Positions 41,513 through 52,709 of a stretch of 64,000 nt of DNA are shown here, one piece after another. Position 1 is the first letter of the stretch. Every line of letters begins with the position of its first letter. A program made the position numbers and the translations under genes. The notes below the pieces were generated by a model, which did not search any database, had not been told where the DNA came from, and saw nothing but the letters and a program-made list of their open reading frames with translations. The stretch is from a gamma proteobacterium symbiont of Ctena orbiculata (GTDB taxonomy: Bacteria; Pseudomonadota; Gammaproteobacteria; Chromatiales; Chromatiaceae): contig NATV01000102.1 of assembly GCA_003094535.1 (NCBI GenBank), positions 6,507 to 70,506 on the forward strand. The letters are read 5' to 3'.

Positions 41513-42247
41513 CTATTTGCTGAATACGGCATCCTCAATGATCACTGGATAGAAATAACCATAACCAAAATCCTTGTTGACATATAAGACACCTTTGGCG
41601 GTCACCTCATCGCCAACAGCGATACCACCTTGCGTCGTACGCATCACAATCTTGTTGTTTTTTTCCGCTGCCGCTCCAGTACCATCTTCAATATGCACCC
41701 AGTCACTTCCCATGATCTGCATCGATAGTTTTGCTATTTTCCCCTTGACTTCGATAACCTTTCCGCCCAGTTCATCCTTTTTTTCAAAGATCTCCTTAAT
41801 GGTGAAACGCCCGAATGGACTCCCCAGCCCTGTTACTCGATTCGATACAGCCTGTGGTTTGGGCTGTTCCTTGTTTGGAGACGGTTTTGCATGTACTTTT
41901 GTAGGCAGCTCCGCTCCCTTGCTGATCGCTTCCACAAATAGAATTCTGTCAAATGTCCGATTGAGCGATGGGCTGGTGAAATTTTCCATAAGCATTTGTT
42001 CGTAAAAACTGATCTTGTCACCAACGCCAATCTGAGTCTGGGGTAGCGCGATCCAGAACGCTTTGCCCTCTTCCTCAACTCGGATATAGGTATAGCCTGC
42101 AGTGGACATGGTTTCCAAAACTGTAGCGGTATGGGCAATCGCGCCACCTTTGTTGGCAGGCATGCCTTTGTCATCAGACACTGCCAATGTGCTCGAAATC
42201 GCGAGCAGAATCGAGAACATCCAGAAAATCGGTGTTGCGTGAATCAT
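41513..42247 (-). CDS. Exported double OB-fold protein (NrfJ-related)
   Basis: VLETMSTAGYTYIRV...W.A; IMGSDWVHIEDGTG; KDFGYGYFYPVIIEDA. Confidence 0.78.
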   Translation of the reverse strand: MIHATPIFWMFSILLAISSTLAVSDDKGMPANKGGAIAHTATVLETMSTAGYTYIRVEEEGKAFWIALPQTQIGVGDKISFYEQMLMENFTSPSLNRTFDRILFVEAISKGAELPTKVHAKPSPNKEQPKPQAVSNRVTGLGSPFGRFTIKEIFEKKDELGGKVIEVKGKIAKLSMQIMGSDWVHIEDGTGAAAEKNNKIVMRTTQGGIAVGDEVTAKGVLYVNKDFGYGYFYPVIIEDAVFSK

Positions 42248-42479
42248 TGTTGGTTTCTCTGTGTGAACGACTTGGGCGTCTTACAAACCTATCTGCAGCA
42301 GGTTACAGCTACTGCCCGATATGCGGAGACCGCTTCTCTTCCCGATGTTTGGCCGTCGACTGCAGTGATATGGAGTGCCGCAGCGGTTGACAACCAATCC
42401 CAGCGTGCCTGTATTGTTGGCACTGATAAAAAAATCCTGCGCATCAGCAGGGTCAGGCCCCAACACGGCTTTACTCATT

Positions 42480-42800
42480 ATACGCGGTCATCACTTCATT
42501 CGTCGCTATCAATTCGGACTTTTGCCTCTCTGTGCCTGTTTTTCGTGCTTACCGCCCCAGCCAGGATCCCAGCCTGTTCATCCCCTCGCAAAAACCGGAC
42601 ATTGACTGGTTGCACGTGGTCGGACCCGGGCAAGACCCGGTACGCAGAAATATCACGGAGTCGGAGACACACGAAGGGCTACAATCGTTCCACCATGCCG
42701 GCGACTGTCTCAGCTGTCACGAGGAGCAGCAGAAAAATCTGCACTACGTGCGCGCCACCCTGGTCTGCCGTGACTGTCAAATCTCGAAACCCGTCGCAGG
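42480..42800 (+). pseudogene. Frameshifted, truncated c-type cytochrome remnant
   Basis: Signal-like FASLCLFFVLTAPA in one frame, QDPSLF...GDCLSCHEE...VCRDCQ in the next; shift near 42562; no clear start codon. Confidence 0.45.
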
Positions 42801-42828
42801 CCACAGATTGGCGGAAGCCCTCCCGGGA

Positions 42829-43239
42829 TCACCACTTGGGACAGCGGGTAAAAGTGAAGTTGTAGGATTTGTCTTTCCAGGCTCCACCCCAGATCCGGGT
42901 GAGATTCATGACTTCCCCGTCCAGACGCAGGATTTCGGTCACCGGCGTCCCCCAACCGCGAATTGTCTTGGCCTTACACTCCGTATAGGCGTCATTGCAG
43001 GCGAGAGCCGCCTCGTGGGTCCGCCCGCTGCGGCCACCGCGGATGAACAGACTCCCCTCCGCCACGCTGTACTGGGTAATCATGCGCTTCTTCTCGCGAC
43101 ACCACTCACCCATGAGGCCAATGGACTCTCCGCCGGACTCGGCCATTGCCGGCTTCGCCGCCGCGGCCATACCGCCAGGGAGCGCCAAAATCACAACCAG
43201 AAGCCATACCCAAACCGATGGCTTTTCATACGATATCAC
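42829..43239 (-). CDS. Small secreted hypothetical protein with 4 Cys
   Basis: Signal peptide; GEWC...C...C...C pattern. Confidence 0.6.
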   Translation of the reverse strand: MISYEKPSVWVWLLVVILALPGGMAAAAKPAMAESGGESIGLMGEWCREKKRMITQYSVAEGSLFIRGGRSGRTHEAALACNDAYTECKAKTIRGWGTPVTEILRLDGEVMNLTRIWGGAWKDKSYNFTFTRCPKW

Positions 43240-43356: not shown

Positions 43357-43406
43357 TGGAACGGACTGTTCACAAGAACGAAAGACGATTGAACGATTCG
43401 TTCAAT
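43357..43406 (+). promoter_or_regulatory. Tandem upstream activator sites (weak + perfect palindrome)
   Basis: TGGAACGG-A-CTGTTCAC (43357-43373) and ATTGAACGA-T-TCGTTCAAT (43388-43406); near-identical pair at 52661-52709. Confidence 0.75.
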
Positions 43407-43581: not shown

Positions 43582-43598
43582 CTGGTATAATTCTTGCA
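43582..43598 (+). promoter_or_regulatory. Sigma54 (-24/-12) promoter of the cytochrome c2 operon
   Basis: CTGGTATAATTCTTGCA, GG-N10-GC with TTGC. Confidence 0.7.
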
Positions 43599-43696: not shown

Positions 43697-44119
43697 ATGA
43701 AGAAGCTTGCTCTGGTTGCCTTGGCTGCTGCAATCGCCTTTCCAATGGCCAGCGTTGACGTTATGGCAATGGATGAAGCCAAAGCGACAAAAAAAATGGT
43801 AAAGAGAGGTAAGAAAGTAGCCATCAAACAGTGTTTCGCTTGTCACGACATAACCGAAGACAAGCAAAACAGAGTCGGTCCCCCGCTTTGGGGTGTCTAT
43901 GGCAGATCAGCCGGCGCGGTTGATGGCTATCAATACTCTGAAGCACATTTGGGCAAAGCGGATTCAATCGTTTGGGATGAAGCCACCCTCGATGCTTACC
44001 TGCAGGACCCGAAGGCCCTGGTACCTGGGAACAAAATGGCGTTTCCCGTTGCCGGCATGCCTATTATGTCCGATAAACAACGGAAGAACGTGATCGAATT
44101 CCTGAAGACGCTAAAGTAA
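43697..44119 (+). CDS. Class I c-type cytochrome (c2/CycA-like)
   Basis: AGGAG RBS, start MKKLA; CFACH, VGPPLWGVYGR, YLQDPK, PGNKMAF axial Met. Confidence 0.93.
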   Translation: MKKLALVALAAAIAFPMASVDVMAMDEAKATKKMVKRGKKVAIKQCFACHDITEDKQNRVGPPLWGVYGRSAGAVDGYQYSEAHLGKADSIVWDEATLDAYLQDPKALVPGNKMAFPVAGMPIMSDKQRKNVIEFLKTLK

Positions 44120-44160
44120 CTGTTCGCTTTTTAACTCCAGCTGTAAGGAGGTCTTGATTC

Positions 44161-44598
44161 ATGAACATTTTGCGCACTCGGATTTTCTTACTCCCACTAC
44201 TTATCCTGTTTATCTCTCCGCCGCTGTATGCGGCCGACACTGGTGTGGTCACAATCAATGCGAAAAACTCCGCCGCGGAGATCCTGGAAAGTTTGAAAAT
44301 GCAGCTTGAGCAAAAACGATTCAAGATCTTTTCGGTGTACGACCATGGGGACAAGGGTTCCGTCAAGCAGGTTATTGTTTTCGGAAAAACGAATCACAAT
44401 GCACGCATCATGTGGCACGATCCCGCTGCCGGTCTGGAACTGCCGCTGAAGATCGCCGTTTTCCAGGACGACGTGGGGACGCAGGTGATCTACCGCAAGC
44501 CCTCCTCTTTACGAAACACCTATAGCCTGCAAGAGTGTAATCTGTTGGATGAGTTGGACCTGTTGATGGCTGAATTGGCGCAGAAAGCAGCCCAGTGA
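44161..44598 (+). CDS. DUF302 domain protein, exported
   Basis: FKIFSVYDH, VIVFG, AGLELPLKIAV. Confidence 0.85.
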   Translation: MNILRTRIFLLPLLILFISPPLYAADTGVVTINAKNSAAEILESLKMQLEQKRFKIFSVYDHGDKGSVKQVIVFGKTNHNARIMWHDPAAGLELPLKIAVFQDDVGTQVIYRKPSSLRNTYSLQECNLLDELDLLMAELAQKAAQ

Positions 44599-45191
44599 CG
44601 CTTTCCAATCCTCGCCTGCTTTCGGCCATCCTGGTTGGGATTATTGCAATTCCGGCGACTGCGCTCTCCACGCCGCAGTCGCCGGAAGCGTGTGGAAGCC
44701 GCTCTTTCGGCAGCGGCATCTTTCGCGCATACACTGATCCAAAGCCGGTATCCCGGCAGGCGTTTACCACCGATGGCGGCAAAAAGATCGACCTGGACAG
44801 TCTTCCGGGGCCGCGCGCGCTGCTTGTCAATTTCTGGACCACATGGTGCACCCCGTGCAGAGAGGAGATGCCCTCCCTGGACCGACTTCAGGGACGTGTC
44901 TCCAGTGACCAGCTGCTGATCCTGCCCTTGGTCCGGGATGGAAAAGGGTTATCGGAAGCGGAGCGCTTCTATCGAACACATGAAATCACCAACCTACCCG
45001 TCGCAGCCGACCGGTTCGGCAAGATCTCCCATGACCACCGTATTGGCGCCCTGCCGCAGACATTGTTTGTTGACCAACAGGGATTGGTAAAAGGGGTTTT
45101 GATCGGCGGTGTGGACTGGGAGAGCAGGCCGGTGTTGGAGTTGCTGAACCGTTGTTTGAATGTAACAGTCGACCAAGAGACATCCGGTTGA
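44595..45191 (+). CDS. TlpA/ResA-like thiol-disulfide oxidoreductase
   Basis: LVNFWTTWCTPCREEMPSL, LPQTLFVD; GTGA overlap with DUF302. Confidence 0.9.
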   Translation: MTLSNPRLLSAILVGIIAIPATALSTPQSPEACGSRSFGSGIFRAYTDPKPVSRQAFTTDGGKKIDLDSLPGPRALLVNFWTTWCTPCREEMPSLDRLQGRVSSDQLLILPLVRDGKGLSEAERFYRTHEITNLPVAADRFGKISHDHRIGALPQTLFVDQQGLVKGVLIGGVDWESRPVLELLNRCLNVTVDQETSG

Positions 45192-45298
45192 CACGCTCTA
45201 TCTATAGAATCTATGAATGAACGACCATCCAGGCTGCCGAATCCTGTCCGCCTGACCGTTGTCGTGACTGCAGCCTGTAAAAAAGATATTGCTGAAGC

Positions 45299-46093
45299 CT
45301 ACTCGTTGGCAGCCGCCATGTCTCCACATTTCAGCAAGGCCAGCATCTCCTTGTTTTCCAGTTTATTGGCAAAATCACAGGCGTTGACCTCCTGCTTGCC
45401 CATTTTAAGGTAGTCCGCCGCCTTCATAGTCTGCTTGGGATCCGCGCCGTTTTTCAGCAGCAACTTAACCATCTTATTGCTACCCGTGTTGATGGCGTAC
45501 ATCAGTGGAGTAAGGTCCTCTTCACTTACCCTGTAATTGACATCAACGCCATTTTTCAAAAGCAGCCTGACCGCTTCGATTTTTTCCTCGCTGACGGCCT
45601 CTTGCAGCAGCGTCCTGCTGAACATGGTTGTTACGTTCAGATCCAGCCCCAGTTGAATCGCCCTTTTTAACTGCTCGTCCCGATCATTGACACCCGGTTC
45701 ATAGAGCACAAGCTGAAGTAACTCTCCGTTCTCCACCGCACCTTTATAGGCCTCACAGCCCGACGCAGAGCCAAAATCACATGCAAGTTTGGTGTATTTA
45801 TAGGCTTCAACAATATCTTTTGATTCAATGCCGAATCTAACCTCCCCTTCTAAATAAGCCGACGCCATGACAAGGCAGAGCTCGCCACTTTTCTCTTCAA
45901 TACAGTACTGTTTTAACGTTTCACCCGCCTCTTCGTACCGCAGCTGAGAAACAAGGAAAGTGACCTCCCTCTGCCAACCGATCGGAGCCCCTGCCGCCAT
46001 GGCCAGAGTGGGCAGGACGAACAGCGCCATGACTGCAAAAAACACTTCTTTGATGGCTTTCCTGTTCAAGCTGTAACCCTGTAGCATTATCAT
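45299..46093 (-). CDS. Exported Sel1-like + ankyrin repeat protein
   Basis: AYKYTKLACDFGSASGC; RTLLQEAV...LLLKNGVDVN; TPLMYA...LLLKNGADP. Confidence 0.85.
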   Translation of the reverse strand: MIMLQGYSLNRKAIKEVFFAVMALFVLPTLAMAAGAPIGWQREVTFLVSQLRYEEAGETLKQYCIEEKSGELCLVMASAYLEGEVRFGIESKDIVEAYKYTKLACDFGSASGCEAYKGAVENGELLQLVLYEPGVNDRDEQLKRAIQLGLDLNVTTMFSRTLLQEAVSEEKIEAVRLLLKNGVDVNYRVSEEDLTPLMYAINTGSNKMVKLLLKNGADPKQTMKAADYLKMGKQEVNACDFANKLENKEMLALLKCGDMAAANE

Positions 46094-46147
46094 TACCTAC
46101 ACACCTGATTTGAGTTCGAGATACCTATTTGAAACACACAACAAACC

Positions 46148-47056
46148 TTAACCGATCGGACCACCCATATCATCGGTACTGTCATGCATCTCCCCGCCCC
46201 AATCTATCCACTCCACAAGGGAACCGTCATAGAGCCGGGCTTCCGGGTTTTGCAGAATTTGATGCAGGACAAACCAGCCCAATGCCGCCCAGACGCCGGT
46301 ATCGCTGAAAGTGGCAAGCGCCCCTCTGGTTTGAATATCATAACGTTCAAATTCCAGTTGGATGATTTCCGCGGACAGAAACCCTCCTGTTTCACCATCC
46401 AGTAACCGTTCAGGCGGAATCCCGACACCGTCATAAATCGTTCCGCCTTCGGCTACCTGCGGGTCTCGCCTGTAGCCTTCAAAATAGGACGTGGGCCGCA
46501 GATCGATCACCGGCCTGTTATTACCCAGTAAATCTTCCACGCGACTGCTGTCGGCCAACAGATCAGGCTGGAGACTGATGCTGCACACCTTTGGGTCCAC
46601 GGATGACGCGCCTTCGACCAGATCGTGAGCGGGCAGCGACTCAATACCGCCGTCCAAAAGTGCGACCCGCTGAACACCGGCCATCATCAGGCTCCACACA
46701 ACACGCGCCGCTTCAGCGACCTGCCTGGGATGCCTGACGGAACCGACCACAATCACGGATTCATCACCCTCCAATCCCAGGCTGCCCAGTAACTCCGCCA
46801 GTTTATTCCCGTCAGGCAGGTAACCGGGCAGGCCGTAGCGATCAACCTGCCAAGCGCGCTCTTTAAAGCCGGCCCAGCGTGCTTGCGGCCAGTGGCCAGC
46901 CATGAACTCGGCGCGGGACCTGACATCCAAAACAACAACTTTTTCGCTGTTCTGGGAGAGCCAGGCGCCATCCACCAGTACCGGCAAGGGCGCTGCAAAA
47001 AGATACAACGGCCAGAGACATCCCAACAGTGCCAGGATAGGAAACTGTACAGCCAC
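46148..47056 (-). CDS. Tandem-domain rhodanese/sulfurtransferase homolog, active-site Cys replaced by Ser
   Basis: VLDVR...GHWP, LLDGG, IDLR, FSDTGVWA, LYDGSLVEW; GTG start at 47056 chosen to avoid a long overlap (ORF track start 47107). Confidence 0.85.
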   Translation of the reverse strand: MAVQFPILALLGCLWPLYLFAAPLPVLVDGAWLSQNSEKVVVLDVRSRAEFMAGHWPQARWAGFKERAWQVDRYGLPGYLPDGNKLAELLGSLGLEGDESVIVVGSVRHPRQVAEAARVVWSLMMAGVQRVALLDGGIESLPAHDLVEGASSVDPKVCSISLQPDLLADSSRVEDLLGNNRPVIDLRPTSYFEGYRRDPQVAEGGTIYDGVGIPPERLLDGETGGFLSAEIIQLEFERYDIQTRGALATFSDTGVWAALGWFVLHQILQNPEARLYDGSLVEWIDWGGEMHDSTDDMGGPIG

Positions 47057-47991
47057 TATGACCGGGTCACGCAGTGATTCAGTTCGGAAGCCAGTTTGCC
47101 AAACCACTGAAAGTAGCCTCCCGTCGTTTTCGGCATCTCCAGGCCGGCGGGATCCAATACGACACTGTTCAAGCCGGCCTGATCCAATACAGATTTAAGC
47201 TGCGGATCTATGGGTTCGGCCGCCACCACGCATTTGACGCCCCGGGTCTTGGCCTTATCGACGATATCCTGGGCGCTTCCGCCGGCTGGAACCGTTCTCA
47301 GTCGATAGCGCTGTTCAAGGTAGTGAAATTCATCCTGCAAGACCACAAACGGCTGGCCGCCGACATGGTGAAACAGTTTGTTGACGCGGATGTCCAGCTC
47401 CCAGAGGGCCTGGATGATCTGATCCGAATTGCCCTGGTAGGCCCAGTGGTTACGTTGGTCCAACCCCTGAAAAACCATCGTTATCGCCTCCAGGGCCGCC
47501 ATGGCGTTCAGCGGGTCCAGCCAATATAGCGTATCGATCGCCCCTTCGGGGCGAATGGTTTGCACCATGCCATATCCCTTACCCAATGACTCCATGTGCG
47601 GATCCTCATCTTCCTTCGCTGCTTTCCAGTCTGCCGGAGTCCGCTTGGCCAGCTGGTGTACACCGGCCGCGTCAATCAAGGAGACTGCCGCCTGGCCGGA
47701 TTCCGTCAGCTGCCTCCCAAGCCCGGGCTCTAAGGTTGCGCCACCCCAGAAGAGGACCGTCAGATCGTCTGGTATCTGCCAGCGCCCCCGCTCATCCTTC
47801 TCCACCAACAGGACTTCCACTGGGCTGCCCCAAGCCAGCGCAGAGGCCAGGGTGAACATAGGGGGCTGCGTAACGCCGACGCGGAACATGGCTTGCGGCT
47901 TCTCACTGGTGGGCAGATCACCGCCAACTACCGTTGCAATAAGTCCCAACCAGAGCGCGATAACGCTTACAACCAATCTAGCCATAACCAC
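47056..47991 (-). CDS. ZnuA-fold substrate-binding-like protein lacking canonical His ligands
   Basis: YWLDPLNA, FVVLQDEFHYLEQRY, VLDP cluster A-I framework; no permease or ATPase adjacent. Confidence 0.72.
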   Translation of the reverse strand: MVMARLVVSVIALWLGLIATVVGGDLPTSEKPQAMFRVGVTQPPMFTLASALAWGSPVEVLLVEKDERGRWQIPDDLTVLFWGGATLEPGLGRQLTESGQAAVSLIDAAGVHQLAKRTPADWKAAKEDEDPHMESLGKGYGMVQTIRPEGAIDTLYWLDPLNAMAALEAITMVFQGLDQRNHWAYQGNSDQIIQALWELDIRVNKLFHHVGGQPFVVLQDEFHYLEQRYRLRTVPAGGSAQDIVDKAKTRGVKCVVAAEPIDPQLKSVLDQAGLNSVVLDPAGLEMPKTTGGYFQWFGKLASELNHCVTRS

Positions 47992-48008
47992 TCCAAACCC
48001 ACTGTTCG

Positions 48009-48590
48009 CTATTCAGAATTTGTCGCCTGATCGTTTTTCGCCATGTGCCCTTTCACTTTGACCAGCAGCGCCTTATACGACCCCAAGTCGGCCAGAGTGA
48101 GGTGGCGAACCCCGCTGTGAGAGTTAAACGTGACCACCATTTTATGCCCTTTTTCCATCTCATTGAGGATTTTCGCGGCACTTTCAGGGGAGATCATCAG
48201 GTTGTTCCCTTTGGGTGCCGTGATCTTGTGGCGGCTGTGCTTATCGATGCCGATAGTGACGGTAGTTCCCGCCTTGAATCCCTGGTAGGTGGCGACCACA
48301 AAACCAACGGAATCGGGTGTCCACGCTGGCCCTACCTGGACAAAATTCTTTGCTTTCCATTCGCCGAACTGTTCGATGTGAAACATGCGGCAGTAGACCT
48401 TGTTCTCCTCCATTTCGTCGCAAGTCGCCTTCCAGGTTCCGGCCCGCTCTTCGAACAGGTGATCCCGCTTCATCGGCATGGGCACCCGCTGTTCACTCAT
48501 CGCGCCTTCATCCGCAGCCTTTGCCAAAACGGGAGCGACGCAAAATCCAATCGCCAAGACCAGAACAGTCGTAACAAGAGGATCTTTCAT
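48009..48590 (-). CDS. Invasion-associated locus B (IalB)-like exported protein
   Basis: GTWKATCD...YCRMF; MEKGHKMVVTF; ADLGSYKA. Confidence 0.65.
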   Translation of the reverse strand: MKDPLVTTVLVLAIGFCVAPVLAKAADEGAMSEQRVPMPMKRDHLFEERAGTWKATCDEMEENKVYCRMFHIEQFGEWKAKNFVQVGPAWTPDSVGFVVATYQGFKAGTTVTIGIDKHSRHKITAPKGNNLMISPESAAKILNEMEKGHKMVVTFNSHSGVRHLTLADLGSYKALLVKVKGHMAKNDQATNSE

Positions 48591-49732
48591 TAATCCGCCT
48601 CCGCATCATTGCGCGCGCCGCGCAGCACCCAGTTACTGACCAGCTGCAACTGCTCCTGACTCAGCTTGGTGTAACGCCGCATTTCCTTCAGGTTGTTGCG
48701 CCAATCGAACATGATCCACTTATCACGTGGATAGGTTGTGTGACACAAATTGCAGTCCAAATCATGGAGATCGGTCACATACTCCCAGAAGCGCTCTTCA
48801 CTGGATCCAATGGCAGAGCGTGGCACCCATCCGCTAAGCTTGATGCGGTTCCAGGTCAACTCATACTCCGGTTCCAGCTTGCTCTCTATTTTCTCCACTT
48901 GATCCATGCCATCGAAATTCATCTTGGCCAACGCGACGGCACGATTGAAGTCGATAAAGATCTGACTGCCCTCTTCCCTGTCCCATCCTTCACTTGTCAC
49001 TTGAACCCAATCGCCATCCTGTTTGACAACCGTCAACGGCGTACCGCCATAGAGCGTTGCCAGCGGATCTTCGCCGCCCGGGGTAGCCGTCATTTCCACT
49101 TCAGGCAGGATCACAACCGCATTGTCAGCGAGTTGGGCATTATGGGCTTGCGTATGATATTCGGCTTCCATCTCCGCATAGAGCTTCTCCATATTGGGCA
49201 ATTTATGGGCAATTCCTTTGTGGCAGTTAATACAGGTCTGCTCCCCGCTCATAAGCTTCTTGTGCATCTTTTGCGCCAATGAAGCCTGCTTGTCTGTAAG
49301 CATTGTTTCGTTGGTATGGCAGTTACGACACTCGCGGGAGTCACTCTTCTCCATGGTCCTCCATACATTGTCGGCAAGCTGCAGCCGGTGTGCTTCAAAC
49401 TTCTCCGGTGTATCGATGGTGCCCAGGGCCCAATGGTACAACTCTTTTGTCGCCATGATTTTACGCACCAATTTCGCACCCCAGGGTTTCGGCACATGAC
49501 AGTCTGAACAGATTGCCGGGACACCGGAGGAATTGTGCGCATGCGCCGACTCTTCATACTCCCCCTTCACCACATTCATTTCGTGGCAGGAAGTACAGAA
49601 TTCATAGCTATTGGTATATTCCATGAAGGTGTTAAAGCCGCCCCAACCAATAACACCGGCGATGATACCGACACCAAGCAACAGGCTTCGTGGGCCTGTT
49701 CCCGACAACCATTTGAGCGCTTTTTTAACCAT
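48590..49732 (-). CDS. TorC/TorY-like pentaheme c-type cytochrome (NapC/NirT domain + C-terminal monoheme domain)
   Basis: TM anchor, CTSCH, CSDCH, CRNCH, CINCH, HKGIAH, then CNLCH; start MVKKAL with AGGA RBS. Confidence 0.9.
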   Translation of the reverse strand: MVKKALKWLSGTGPRSLLLGVGIIAGVIGWGGFNTFMEYTNSYEFCTSCHEMNVVKGEYEESAHAHNSSGVPAICSDCHVPKPWGAKLVRKIMATKELYHWALGTIDTPEKFEAHRLQLADNVWRTMEKSDSRECRNCHTNETMLTDKQASLAQKMHKKLMSGEQTCINCHKGIAHKLPNMEKLYAEMEAEYHTQAHNAQLADNAVVILPEVEMTATPGGEDPLATLYGGTPLTVVKQDGDWVQVTSEGWDREEGSQIFIDFNRAVALAKMNFDGMDQVEKIESKLEPEYELTWNRIKLSGWVPRSAIGSSEERFWEYVTDLHDLDCNLCHTTYPRDKWIMFDWRNNLKEMRRYTKLSQEQLQLVSNWVLRGARNDAEAD

Positions 49733-49816
49733 CACATTCCTATCGATTACAGTTCTATCAGTTTCATCATTGAAGGAGAGAGTCGCCAATCAAGATCTAT
49801 CCAACAATTAACTATA

Positions 49817-49833
49817 AGCAATAAACATACCTT
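49817..49833 (-). promoter_or_regulatory. Possible internal sigma54 promoter for the TorC-like operon
   Basis: AAGGTATGTTTATTGCT, GG-N10-GC, shares GGTAT and TTGC with the other two. Confidence 0.5.
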
Positions 49834-49900
49834 GAAAACAGACAACCGCCTTGACCCATACCGCAATCGAAGTCAGTCTTAAAATTCAATAAAAGGAGTG

Positions 49901-49934
49901 AAAAAATGGAGCCAGCCCAAAGGACTGGCTCCAT
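49901..49934 (-). terminator. Intrinsic terminator after the dodecaheme gene
   Basis: 10-bp stem ATGGAGCCAG/CTGGCTCCAT followed by a T-run on the minus strand. Confidence 0.75.
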
Positions 49935-49974
49935 CCATTCAGGTGATAACCACCTCTTTGCCTGCTACCGCAGC

Positions 49975-52326
49975 TTACTTCTTCTGAGCGGCAATGGCCT
50001 TCAGCGCTTTCTTCATGAACTGCTGGTGTTCGAAGCTATCCATAACGCCAGGCTTGGATACCTTCTTCCAGAATTCAGGATTGAAACGCTCTTCGTGACA
50101 TCCGAGGCAGACACCGGTCTTCTCGATGGCGTCACGCTTCTCATCAGGCAGAGGACCTGTCAGCGGCCAGTGAGAACCTACGGAACTCAACTGTTCGCCA
50201 TCCTCGGTAACGATCGCGGACCAGTCGTAGGTCAGGCCGGGGATGCCGGGGATCTGAACCTGGGTCTTCTGAGGAATGATCTTGCCACTCGCGGAGTCCT
50301 TCAGATCCAGGACGAAGTCCTTGTCGGCACCCAACAGGAAGCGACCGCCCTCAACACCGTAGCCCAATGCCTTGGGATTGTCGTGACAGGACTCACAGCT
50401 CCGGGCGCTACGGCCAGCGGTGTGAGGCTGTACGGCGGCGGTATCGATACCTGGACCTTCAGGGGTCTCCCAGATCTTGTTGTTGACCAGGGTCTTGCCG
50501 TCTTTGTCGATAACCGTGGTGGTTACCTGACAACCAGGCATCATCGGGCTGACACGGCCTTCACCGTTGATACCGAGTACCGGCGTCTCCCAACGCAGAT
50601 AGGAGCGGGTCTCCATGACCTTGCCAGGGCTTTTCATACCATTGGTGTTGGGCGGTGCATCCGGGGTCAGACCGGTCTTGGGATCACGGTTGCTGGCGTT
50701 GACGAGCCAGTCGGTACCCTTATTGTCTTTGGAGTAGTCGACGGTGACGTGACAACCGTAACACTGCGGAACCCAGTCGGCGTGACAAGCGTAGCACTCC
50801 ATGTTGTTCTGATGTTGAGGAATCAGGAACATGGAAACCTTCGCCAGCGTAGACTTGAAGGTGCCTTCGTCACCGATCTGCTTCAGCAGCGGAACCCTGA
50901 AGTCCAGGCCGTTGGCGGAGTGAACGATAACGTCCTTGCCCTTCTTGACCACATTACCCAAGGGGTTGCCCCGGGCAGTCAGTAGGAAACCATCTTCAGG
51001 TTCGTACTGGGTGGCGTCTTTCATGTACTCGGGCCACTCCTTGCCGAGTCCGCGCGCCTTGGTGTCGGCGGTCGGCAGACCGTCTTTCATCTCACCGAAC
51101 TCTTCGCCACGACCCAGGGGCAGATCCCAAGGCAGTTTATTGAAGGTACCGTGACAGTCTTCACATTCGACCTCAACCTGAGCCAGGGTGGTGCCGGGGA
51201 TGTTGCCGTCACCATGCAGATCGATGGTGGTATGGCAGTCCTGACAGAGCATGCCGCCTTTCGGGTTGCCGGCAATCGAGTTCATTTCATGGTGAAGGTC
51301 TTCCTTGATGAACAGGTAACGCTTGGTGTGCATCTTGGGCTGCTTCTTGCCCTTTTCATTGAAAGGAGAACCGTAAGGCGCTTCCATGATGCCCTGATAG
51401 CTGACACCTACACGCTTACCGCGGTTGTGGCAAGAGACACAGGTTTCAACCGGGATACCGGAGTATTCAACCTCGCCAACCTTGACCTTGGTCTTACGGG
51501 TGCCCTGCATGCGGTGAGTCAGTATGTGACCCGCCTCGTCCTTGTTGATGGTGGGGTCGCCGCCTTCGTAGAAGCCGTCATTGGAGTAAGGCACGTGACA
51601 GGCGGAACAACCGGACCCGCGGTAGTCACCACGCTTGTCGCGACCGGTAACACCAACGTGACAGCGCTGACAGTCATGACGGGAGTAGGTAAGACCCGCG
51701 TGGTTGGGATTGTCGGTCAGCTTGGCCAAATCCACCTGGGGCAGCTGTTTCAGCCGCTTGGGCATCTGGTCCGGATGTTTCTTGACGAAGTCCTTCATGT
51801 ACTTCTTGTACGCTTTGGTACCGACCAGAGGCACAGGACCGTCCTCGTCCATGACGTCGTAGTTGCCCCAGACAACCTTCATGTCTTTCTGATAGCCCCA
51901 GGACCACATGTTGCCCTGCAGCTTACCGGCCTCGGTATTCATCAGGGATTTGTTCAGACGGTCGTAGTACCCGGAGTGGCACTGGCCACAGGCCTGGTCG
52001 TTAACCGGCATTGCACCGGGATCCGGCAGGAAGTTCTTGGGACCGCCCTTTTTGGCCAGGGCGGCGGGTGAGCCCATATGGGCTTTCATTTTGTCCTTCT
52101 CTTCGGCTGGGTTGCCACCGTGACAGACCACGCAGCCCGCGGGGTCCCCCAGTTCGGCGCCCATCTTTTCAATGTCCTCCTGCATGACACCGTCACTAAA
52201 GCGTTCAACGCCTTCGTGACAAGCCAGACAGGCTTTGCCTTCGGCTTCAGCGATAGGGACGAAAGTAGTGCCTCCGCTACCCCATCCGACTAACGCCACA
52301 ATTGCAAGTAATGCTAGGCGTTTCAT
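49975..52326 (-). CDS. Periplasmic dodecaheme c-type cytochrome
   Basis: Signal peptide; 12 CxxCH (CLACH, CVVCH, CGQCH, CQRCH, CSACH, CVSCH, CQDCH, CEDCH, CYACH, CYGCH, CESCH, CLGCH); one extra Cys in PGCQ. Confidence 0.93.
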   Translation of the reverse strand: MKRLALLAIVALVGWGSGGTTFVPIAEAEGKACLACHEGVERFSDGVMQEDIEKMGAELGDPAGCVVCHGGNPAEEKDKMKAHMGSPAALAKKGGPKNFLPDPGAMPVNDQACGQCHSGYYDRLNKSLMNTEAGKLQGNMWSWGYQKDMKVVWGNYDVMDEDGPVPLVGTKAYKKYMKDFVKKHPDQMPKRLKQLPQVDLAKLTDNPNHAGLTYSRHDCQRCHVGVTGRDKRGDYRGSGCSACHVPYSNDGFYEGGDPTINKDEAGHILTHRMQGTRKTKVKVGEVEYSGIPVETCVSCHNRGKRVGVSYQGIMEAPYGSPFNEKGKKQPKMHTKRYLFIKEDLHHEMNSIAGNPKGGMLCQDCHTTIDLHGDGNIPGTTLAQVEVECEDCHGTFNKLPWDLPLGRGEEFGEMKDGLPTADTKARGLGKEWPEYMKDATQYEPEDGFLLTARGNPLGNVVKKGKDVIVHSANGLDFRVPLLKQIGDEGTFKSTLAKVSMFLIPQHQNNMECYACHADWVPQCYGCHVTVDYSKDNKGTDWLVNASNRDPKTGLTPDAPPNTNGMKSPGKVMETRSYLRWETPVLGINGEGRVSPMMPGCQVTTTVIDKDGKTLVNNKIWETPEGPGIDTAAVQPHTAGRSARSCESCHDNPKALGYGVEGGRFLLGADKDFVLDLKDSASGKIIPQKTQVQIPGIPGLTYDWSAIVTEDGEQLSSVGSHWPLTGPLPDEKRDAIEKTGVCLGCHEERFNPEFWKKVSKPGVMDSFEHQQFMKKALKAIAAQKK

Positions 52327-52459: not shown

Positions 52460-52476
52460 GGCAAAATCCATACCAC
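52460..52476 (-). promoter_or_regulatory. Sigma54 (-24/-12) promoter of the dodecaheme gene
   Basis: GTGGTATGGATTTTGCC, GG-N10-GC. Confidence 0.68.
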
Positions 52477-52660: not shown

Positions 52661-52709
52661 TTTGAACGAATCGTTCAATCAGCGCCAGTTGGGTGAATAA
52701 TCCGTTCAA
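52661..52709 (-). promoter_or_regulatory. Tandem upstream activator sites (perfect + weak palindrome)
   Basis: TTGAACGA-A-TCGTTCAA (52662-52678) and, on the minus strand, TTGAACGG-A-TTATTCAC (52693-52709); extra half-site at 52742-52751. Confidence 0.75.

Follow-up and report, generated by a model that had tools for sequence, protein, structure and literature searches.

A TorC paralogue paired with a 12-heme cytochrome behind sigma-54-type promoters in Candidatus Thiodiazotropha

Gene content and organization

The 64-kb stretch of DNA analysed here (the window; contig NATV01000102.1) belongs to a Candidatus Thiodiazotropha genome, that of a gamma proteobacterium symbiont of Ctena orbiculata, and encodes at positions 43697–52326 a periplasmic multiheme redox module that includes a 12-heme cytochrome (termed MHC12) and a TorC-like pentaheme cytochrome. 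The module comprises nine genes, each an intact open reading frame (ORF). The first-pass annotation of this DNA, made from the sequence alone, had listed the same nine families and the list was borne out, except that the product described as an ankyrin/Sel1 protein has detectable ankyrin repeats and no Sel1 match. The genes had been presented as a single set; they form in fact two convergent operons, with three genes on the plus strand and six on the minus strand:

43697–44119, plus strand: class-I (c2/c550-like) monoheme cytochrome c, exported (PF00034)
44161–44598, plus strand: DUF302 protein, exported (PF03625, E 1.5e-8)
44595–45191, plus strand: TlpA/ResA/CcmG-like thioredoxin, membrane-anchored, with a WCTPC motif
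45299–46093, minus strand: ankyrin-repeat protein, exported (Ank_2, E 1.6e-14), the terminal gene of the minus-strand operon
46148–47107, minus strand: tandem rhodanese-homology protein, exported (PF00581), with the loop FSDTG and without the catalytic Cys
47056–47991, minus strand: ZnuA/TroA-fold periplasmic protein (PF01297, 78.7 bits)
48009–48590, minus strand: p193, a 193-residue IalB-fold protein, exported, with two invariant Cys residues, C57 and C67
48590–49789, minus strand, likely ATG start at 49732: TorC-like pentaheme quinol dehydrogenase (NapC/NirT domain, E 7e-68)
49975–52326, minus strand: MHC12, a 783-residue exported 12-heme cytochrome of an ExtM-like family (12 CxxCH motifs and C599)

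N-terminal signal or anchor sequences, judged by eye, were seen in all nine proteins, where export of nearly all had been predicted. As also predicted, no sox, tor, tsd or nrf catalytic genes and no molybdoenzymes are present within ~10 kb of the set. The genes that flank it (VWA, SDR, patatin and KsgA) are unrelated.

MHC12 and its TorC-like partner

MHC12 contains exactly 12 CxxCH motifs, all canonical, and one further Cys, C599, located in a PGCQ segment; the atypical heme motifs CxxCK, Cx3CH, Cx4CH and CX15CH were not found in it. Its sole named relative is ExtM of Geobacter, whose family model (NF040943) aligns with residues 203–657 only, at 226.7 bits against a cut-off of 800. The closest homologues, 96% identical, are those of Ca. 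T. taylori, Ca. T. lotti and related species. The family as a whole comprises more than 2,180 matching 90%-identity clusters and at least 546 species genomes, and 220 of the 50%-identity representatives match MHC12 at E < 1e-30. Mean column identity is 74% in 16 alpha- and gammaproteobacterial members, and the long stretches free of heme are unusually well conserved. More distant relatives come from Brocadiales, Planctomycetota, Nitrospinota and other groups, some of them with a C-terminal class-I cytochrome c fusion. Searches of the PDB with the single sequence and with a 49-sequence profile returned only trivial local heme-motif matches, and an AlphaFold2 model (predicted local distance difference test (pLDDT) 71.9, predicted template-modelling score (pTM) 0.75) compared with the PDB by Foldseek gave nothing below E 2; MHC12 has no solved relative by sequence, profile or fold in these searches. 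The family is among the more widespread and best conserved multiheme cytochromes without an assigned function, extending from marine Alpha- and Gammaproteobacteria to anammox bacteria. A same-family copy with in-frame TGA codons (L093, G060:C15:27000–31500) was considered as a possible selenoprotein and rejected, as it is a frameshifted pseudogene.

The lone additional Cys appears to be tied to one heme. C599 is kept in 266 of the 269 full-length homologues that have the heme-10 motif and in 1 of the 12 that do not, where the position is occupied by Y, I, L, T, V, G, K, F or H. Candidate distal ligands conserved family-wide amount to seven His, one Cys and three Met, that is, 11 for 12 hemes. 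Because C599 covaries with the heme-10 motif, heme 10 of MHC12 may be His/Cys-ligated with C599, and the heme chain may be functionally differentiated.

The TorC-like protein has an N-terminal membrane helix, a NapC/NirT tetraheme domain with four CxxCH motifs in residues 36–200 (PF03264, E 7e-68), and a C-terminal monoheme domain; the fifth motif is CNLCH. It aligns with positions 17–380 of the 387 in the torC model TIGR02162, at 290 bits against a cut-off of 478, and its sole solved relative is NrfH (2j7a). Its nearest relatives are all MHC12-linked, as judged from matching contigs and direct gene context. Genuine TorCs, 392 residues long and 38–42% identical to it, adjoin TorD, TorA and TorS/R, and in a phylogenetic tree a single branch (Shimodaira–Hasegawa-like approximate likelihood ratio test (SH-aLRT) 94) parts the MHC12-linked TorC-like proteins from the TorA-linked TorCs.

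The first-pass annotation had held that its proposal would fall if the TorC-like protein served a distant TorA/DmsA-type enzyme. The host genome is 99.99% complete and encodes eight molybdopterin enzymes and six NapC/NirT proteins, among which no TorA/DorA-type enzyme was found: the best scores against torA models are 286–298 bits, with cut-offs of 909–1465. The best of these matches is a DmsA-type enzyme with its own iron–sulfur subunit and chaperone, and a Psr/Phs-like enzyme of the genome has its own NrfH-like and iron–sulfur partners. This ground for refutation therefore falls away.

Two further observations concern relatives of the TorC-like protein. The tree contains a third TorC-like clade (P0442 and 11 others, ~381 residues), one member of which is from a gamma proteobacterium symbiont of Ctena orbiculata; for some of the clade's proteins there are precomputed Pfam matches to PF09626. 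Elsewhere in the same genome, contig C19 (L083:2010–6314) encodes a NapC/NirT domain fused to a C-terminal extension of more than 840 residues that runs off the contig, and this fusion stands behind a 549-residue cytochrome c/beta-propeller protein.

Conservation of the pairing was assessed over 80 loci encoding MHC12 relatives. All nine genes occur together only in Thiodiazotropha and close Sedimenticolaceae (L001, L003–L005). The genes for MHC12, the TorC-like protein and p193 are adjacent in Thiodiazotropha/Sedimenticolaceae (L001–L005) and equally in Magnetovibrio, Terasakiella and Magnetospiraceae (L007, L008, L059), two of which also have the rhodanese. The trio is present in Magnetococcus sp. 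PR-3 (L085), with identities of 80%, 58% and 54% for MHC12, the TorC-like protein and p193, respectively. Six of the nine families occur on one metagenome contig (L090; MHC12 74%, TorC-like 49%, IalB-fold 44%, DUF302 34%, rhodanese 29% and TlpA 48% identical), and TlpA-like thioredoxins adjoin MHC12 on this contig, in a Brocadiaceae genome and in Rhodospirillales ccm clusters. The ZnuA-fold gene (L001, L003 and L004 only) and the ankyrin gene (L001 and L003–L005 only) do not recur outside the Thiodiazotropha clade. The co-occurrence on which the first-pass annotation had staked its proposal is thus seen in other lineages for the core trio, DUF302, rhodanese and TlpA, and the ZnuA-fold and ankyrin proteins are lineage-specific.

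The TorC-linked MHC12s form one clade of 10 entries, which one branch (support 95) splits off from those linked to a small Rap1a-like protein. Three classes retain the TorC-like/12-heme pairing, and the two partners are co-inherited. MHC12 is present in 11 of 61 sampled genomes of the host family and missing from a complete genome of the same genus, and the copies within the family are 58–59% identical, compared with 80% for that of Magnetococcus. Because the distribution within the family is patchy and the Magnetococcus copy is closer than the in-family copies, the module is accessory and was probably acquired horizontally.

In most Alphaproteobacteria MHC12 has other partners: of the 80 loci, 42 encode the Rap1a-like protein, 31 a FixK/Fnr-type regulator and 26 CcmF/H/I genes. 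In Roseibium and Shimia the CcmF beside MHC12 is a second copy, part of a second CcmF/H/I set for which no atypical heme motif offers an explanation; the host genome has a single CcmF, encoded elsewhere than MHC12.

Some TorC-linked loci have additional neighbours. In Magnetococcus sp. PR-3, petABC lies directly upstream of the MHC12/TorC-like/IalB-fold operon, and an H-NOX sensor gene with a hybrid histidine kinase gene lies ~1.2 kb downstream of it (L085:15485–18185). In the three alphaproteobacterial loci the TorC-like gene is followed by one for a secreted protein of ~130 residues (L007:13621–14013, L008:13661–14041 and L059:9199–9612), which has two Cys-rich repeats (CPxTC...C.WSG.W...CDCG), has no family match and is absent from the window.

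Regulatory sites and accessory proteins

Both operons are preceded by a −24/−12 sigma-54-type promoter of the pattern TGGYAYN5TTGCH and by a tandem enhancer:

52460–52475, minus strand: promoter TGGTATGGATTTTGCC, upstream of MHC12
43583–43598, plus strand: promoter TGGTATAATTCTTGCA, upstream of the c2 operon
52662–52708: enhancer on the MHC12 side (exact palindrome TTGAACGATTCGTTCAA at 52662–52678, degenerate copy at 52694–52708)
43358–43405: enhancer on the c2 side (degenerate copy at 43358–43372, exact palindrome TTGAACGATTCGTTCAA at 43389–43405)

The only two matches to the promoter pattern in the window are these operon promoters, and in both operons the sigma-54 element lies ~190 bp downstream of the palindrome. 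The exact 17-nt palindrome has three copies in the 4.29 Mb genome, of which two are those upstream of the operons. The third, on contig C43, adjoins genes for an NtrC-family response regulator (L084:1488–2888) and for a histidine kinase that has periplasmic sensor and PAS domains; this regulator is 68% identical to one encoded beside the module in the Sedimenticolaceae chromosome L004. The palindrome pair upstream of MHC12 is kept in L001 and L003–L005. Because palindromes and sigma-54-type promoters are common to them, the two operons are read as one regulon, and these shared sites indicate that the c2–DUF302–TlpA operon is functionally tied to the MHC12 operon.

On C43 (L084:865–1487) the NtrC-type regulator gene is closely followed by the third tandem palindrome, and a sigma-54-like element (GGCACAAAAATTGCT, minus strand) points into ~300 bp without a convincing ORF. 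This segment could hold a small RNA or a small protein of the same regulon.

Of the accessory proteins, p193 matches Pfam IalB (PF06776) weakly (E 0.027, score 15 against a cut-off of 22.1). The IalB likeness named in the first-pass annotation is clear at the level of fold: for the AlphaFold2 model (pLDDT 79.7) the top Foldseek match is Bartonella IalB (3dtd; E 2.8e-4, probability 1.00, template-modelling score 0.62). The Rap1a-like protein that accompanies other MHC12 genes is no counterpart of p193, the two being unrelated.

The rhodanese homology noted earlier also holds as to fold (PF00581 E 2.7e-10; PRK11493 aligns over residues 65–300), and a sulfurtransferase role does not. The active-site loop is FSDTG in this genome and FSDTG, FSDIG or FDYDG in four other lineages, with the catalytic Cys absent in all five. 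Because this Cys is absent in every lineage, the protein is a conserved non-catalytic one and neither a sulfurtransferase nor a recent inactivation. A lipobox in it (LLGC) was rejected, as the Cys is not conserved in L001.

In the ZnuA-fold protein two ligand His residues of YcdH (2o1e) are replaced, DPHVW reading DTLYW and QHTAF reading LQDEF, and no ABC permease or ATPase partner was found among the neighbouring ORFs scanned. DUF302 is a known insert within truncated sox clusters (PMC5037610).

Three further genes lie near the c2 operon. Two of them are annotated as follows:

42829–43239, minus strand: small exported 4-Cys protein, 136 residues, divergent from the c2 operon and with the enhancer region in common
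42469–42801, plus strand: remnant (approximately the first 95–110 residues) of a triheme-c/cytochrome-b561 fusion, intact in sister genomes

The 136-residue protein has no family match and is kept beside the module in sister genomes. The fusion, of CbcL-like architecture, is intact (485–556 residues) beside the module in L001 and L003–L005; the window copy has lost ~370 C-terminal residues, including the membrane domain. A 244-residue exported protein without a family match (41513–42247, minus strand) is likewise kept beside the module in sister genomes.

Proposed function of the module

Systems in which a quinol dehydrogenase of the NapC/NirT family feeds a soluble multiheme protein are already known. 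The new elements are a TorC paralogue re-wired to MHC12, accompanied by a sigma-54 regulon and an accessory set, and the covariation of Cys599 with heme 10. The gene content, co-occurrence, co-phylogeny, shared regulatory sites, absence of TorA and this covariation are observations; catalysis, direction and substrate are inferred, as follows.

Our favoured reading, held tentatively and judged slightly less than evenly probable, is a sigma-54-controlled periplasmic respiratory module in which MHC12 would be the molybdenum-free terminal catalytic part, acting reductively on a sulfur or selenium substrate. The membrane-anchored TorC paralogue would exchange electrons between the quinol pool and soluble MHC12, the class-I cytochrome c would form a second electron link to the module, and the IalB-fold p193 would be a constant partner. 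The first-pass annotation had proposed a chain from quinol through the TorC-like protein and the dodecaheme cytochrome to c2; this is supported in part, by the conserved TorC-like/12-heme pairing on one side and, on the other, by class-I cytochrome c fusions in distant MHC12s and by adjacent c2-like genes. Terminal catalysis would take place at MHC12 instead of at a molybdoenzyme, and the chemistry is proposed to occur at heme 10, with Cys599 probably as its distal ligand. The conservation of MHC12, the covariation of C599, the ligand set and the second CcmF/H/I sets seen elsewhere point to such a special heme, which is consistent with catalysis.

A reductive direction, at low oxygen, is favoured because low-oxygen (FixK/Fnr-type) regulators flank MHC12 in Alphaproteobacteria and because the relatives of the TorC-like protein oxidise quinol. 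The favoured substrate would be a small sulfur or selenium compound, for example polysulfide, thiosulfate, tetrathionate or selenite. What makes sulfur or another chalcogen plausible is the position of Geobacter ExtM next to MccSep: ExtM (GSU2935) is encoded directly downstream of it, in a cluster that includes the rhodanese ExtH (PMC13510729, PMC5877670), and MccSep was shown in 2026 to be a His/Cys-heme selenoenzyme, a polysulfide reductase essential for elemental sulfur respiration (PMC13510729). The presence of DUF302 within truncated sox clusters (PMC5037610) is a further point for a sulfur or chalcogen substrate. As to the accessory proteins, the rhodanese without catalytic Cys and DUF302 might serve in non-catalytic substrate handling or another accessory role, TlpA would maintain the cysteines of apo- or holo-cytochrome in the reduced state, and the ZnuA-fold and ankyrin proteins would be lineage-specific additions.

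Comparison with known systems places the module between several of them. With TorC/DorC of the trimethylamine N-oxide and dimethyl sulfoxide reductases, the TorC-like protein has in common the membrane helix, the NapC/NirT tetraheme domain and a C-terminal monoheme docking domain, in a near-full-length alignment. However, it is ~10 residues shorter, scores below the equivalog cut-off and falls outside the TorA-linked clade, and it is never beside torD or torA, adjoining instead the 12-heme cytochrome in a genome without TorA. ExtM, from the extHIJKLMNOPQS cluster of Geobacter sulfurreducens, is also a 12-heme periplasmic cytochrome, homologous over the aligned part of MHC12, and each has a rhodanese-like protein and a quinol-oxidising membrane module encoded alongside it; MccSep belongs to the Geobacter cluster (PMC13510729). 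ExtM has ~600 residues, whereas MHC12 has 783; the quinol module is TorC-like here and made of the Rieske/cytochrome b proteins ExtOPQ in Geobacter; and MccSep, ExtN, ExtOPQ and the porin were not found in the window.

In NrfH–NrfA, the CymA-dependent reductases and HAO–c554–cM552, a NapC/NirT cytochrome similarly links quinones to a soluble multiheme protein without molybdenum. By contrast, NrfA, HAO, Otr and MccA have no detectable sequence or fold similarity to MHC12, which lacks CxxCK and CX15CH sites. A dedicated heme lyase of the NrfEFG type also differs, in that the host has no second CcmF/H/I set and MHC12 no atypical motif. In the His/Cys-heme enzymes TsdA, SoxAX and MccSep a thiolate-ligated heme carries out S–S chemistry (PMC13510729). 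The single conserved Cys seemingly tied to one heme in MHC12 recalls these enzymes, although they have no sequence homology to MHC12, in which the ligation is a prediction and selenocysteine is absent. Finally, the Rap1a-linked units of marine Alphaproteobacteria have cytochromes of the same family, 59–65% identical. They differ in carrying the small Rap1a-like protein, the FixK/Fnr-type regulator and, in many cases, a second CcmFHI set, in lacking TorC-like, IalB-fold, rhodanese and DUF302 genes, and in belonging to a separate MHC12 clade.

A number of points weigh against MHC12 as a sulfur or selenium reductase. MHC12 is far below the ExtM family cut-off, its gene context is unlike that in Geobacter, and ExtM is itself without demonstrated function. 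About 70 of the 80 MHC12 loci have no TorC-like neighbour and are paired instead with the small Rap1a-like protein. The rhodanese-like protein, lacking the Cys, is unable to form a persulfide. The link between C599 and heme 10 is one of covariation only, and the homologues without heme 10 may be a few related lineages. Every heme motif of MHC12 is a canonical CxxCH, and in the main clade 12 His residues outside the motifs are invariant, sufficient for an all-bis-His wire. A literature search returned no functional studies of the MHC12 family, of the TorC pairing or of Thiodiazotropha multiheme cytochromes.

The canonical motifs and invariant His residues would suit a different function, that of a periplasmic electron hub or capacitor between the TorC-like protein, cytochrome c2 or bc1, and unlinked terminal enzymes, a possibility that we consider unlikely but substantial. 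The position of petABC in Magnetococcus and the cytochrome c domains fused to distant MHC12 members fit such a hub, as does the failure to find a conserved catalytic partner or substrate transporter; Geobacter ExtM, too, stands between a bc-type complex and MccSep and may only relay electrons. High conservation over long heme-free stretches is, however, uncommon for electron wires, and an invariant lone Cys that covaries with one heme, an MHC12 gene that often stands alone and a dedicated second Ccm lyase set beside it in some taxa also count against a hub.

Running the same chain in the opposite direction, MHC12 might oxidise sulfide, polysulfide or thiosulfate and pass electrons to c2 and, through a reversed TorC-like protein, to quinone. 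Such a module would resemble the HAO–c554–cM552 chain, the c2 gene is within the regulon, and DUF302 is found in sox clusters. The host and most TorC-type carriers (Thiodiazotropha, Magnetococcus, Magnetovibrio and Beggiatoa-like bacteria) are sulfur oxidisers of oxic–anoxic interfaces, and TsdA and SoxAX use His/Cys hemes to oxidise thiosulfate (PMC13510729). We nevertheless regard oxidation as quite improbable: FixK/Fnr-type control elsewhere and the Geobacter context suggest reduction, the TorC-like protein has quinol oxidisers as its relatives, and many MHC12 carriers are heterotrophic roseobacters.

The substrate could also be a nitrogen compound (NO, nitrite or hydroxylamine), with MHC12 as a detoxifying or respiratory multiheme enzyme. 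The family occurs in anammox Brocadiales, Nitrospinota and many denitrifiers, the H-NOX sensor with its hybrid kinase is encoded ~1 kb downstream of the Magnetococcus operon, and known multiheme enzymes show promiscuity across nitrogen and sulfur substrates (PMC13510729). This is very unlikely in our judgement, given that MHC12 lacks CxxCK or any other NrfA/HAO signature and its NrfA match is negligible (E 0.005), that the rhodanese and DUF302 accessories are typical of sulfur systems, and that a Cys-ligated heme would block the binding of small anions. Incidental clustering, in which the TorC-like protein would serve a distant molybdoenzyme beside unrelated neighbours, draws on the eight molybdopterin enzymes and six NapC/NirT proteins of the genome and has almost no remaining probability, largely refuted as it already is by adjacency and co-phylogeny kept across classes, by the enhancer and promoter elements common to both operons, and by a genome without TorA in which the inspected DmsA-type and Psr-type enzymes have their own electron-transfer subunits.

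Returning to the reductive module, a bolder form of it, which we regard as speculative and doubtful, would make MHC12 the founding member of a group of heme-only, molybdenum-free chalcogen reductases with catalysis at a His/Cys heme 10, fed by a TorC paralogue that has switched partner. Polysulfide or stored sulfur, tetrathionate, thiosulfate and selenite may then be its substrates, and sulfur-storing symbionts and magnetotactic bacteria would gain a route of anaerobic sulfur respiration.

Compared with stand-alone MHC12s, the Thiodiazotropha form adds a quinol dehydrogenase dedicated to it, a defined regulon that includes a two-component sensor, and accessory proteins of a sulfur-system type, and these features open the family to experiment. 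Terasakiella, Magnetospira and Magnetovibrio are culturable carriers of the TorC subtype. If MHC12 is catalytic, it would represent a new class of respiratory enzyme, to which a TorC-family protein would have been re-wired from a molybdoenzyme, and the survival of sulfur-storing symbionts and gradient bacteria under anoxia could be explained by it.

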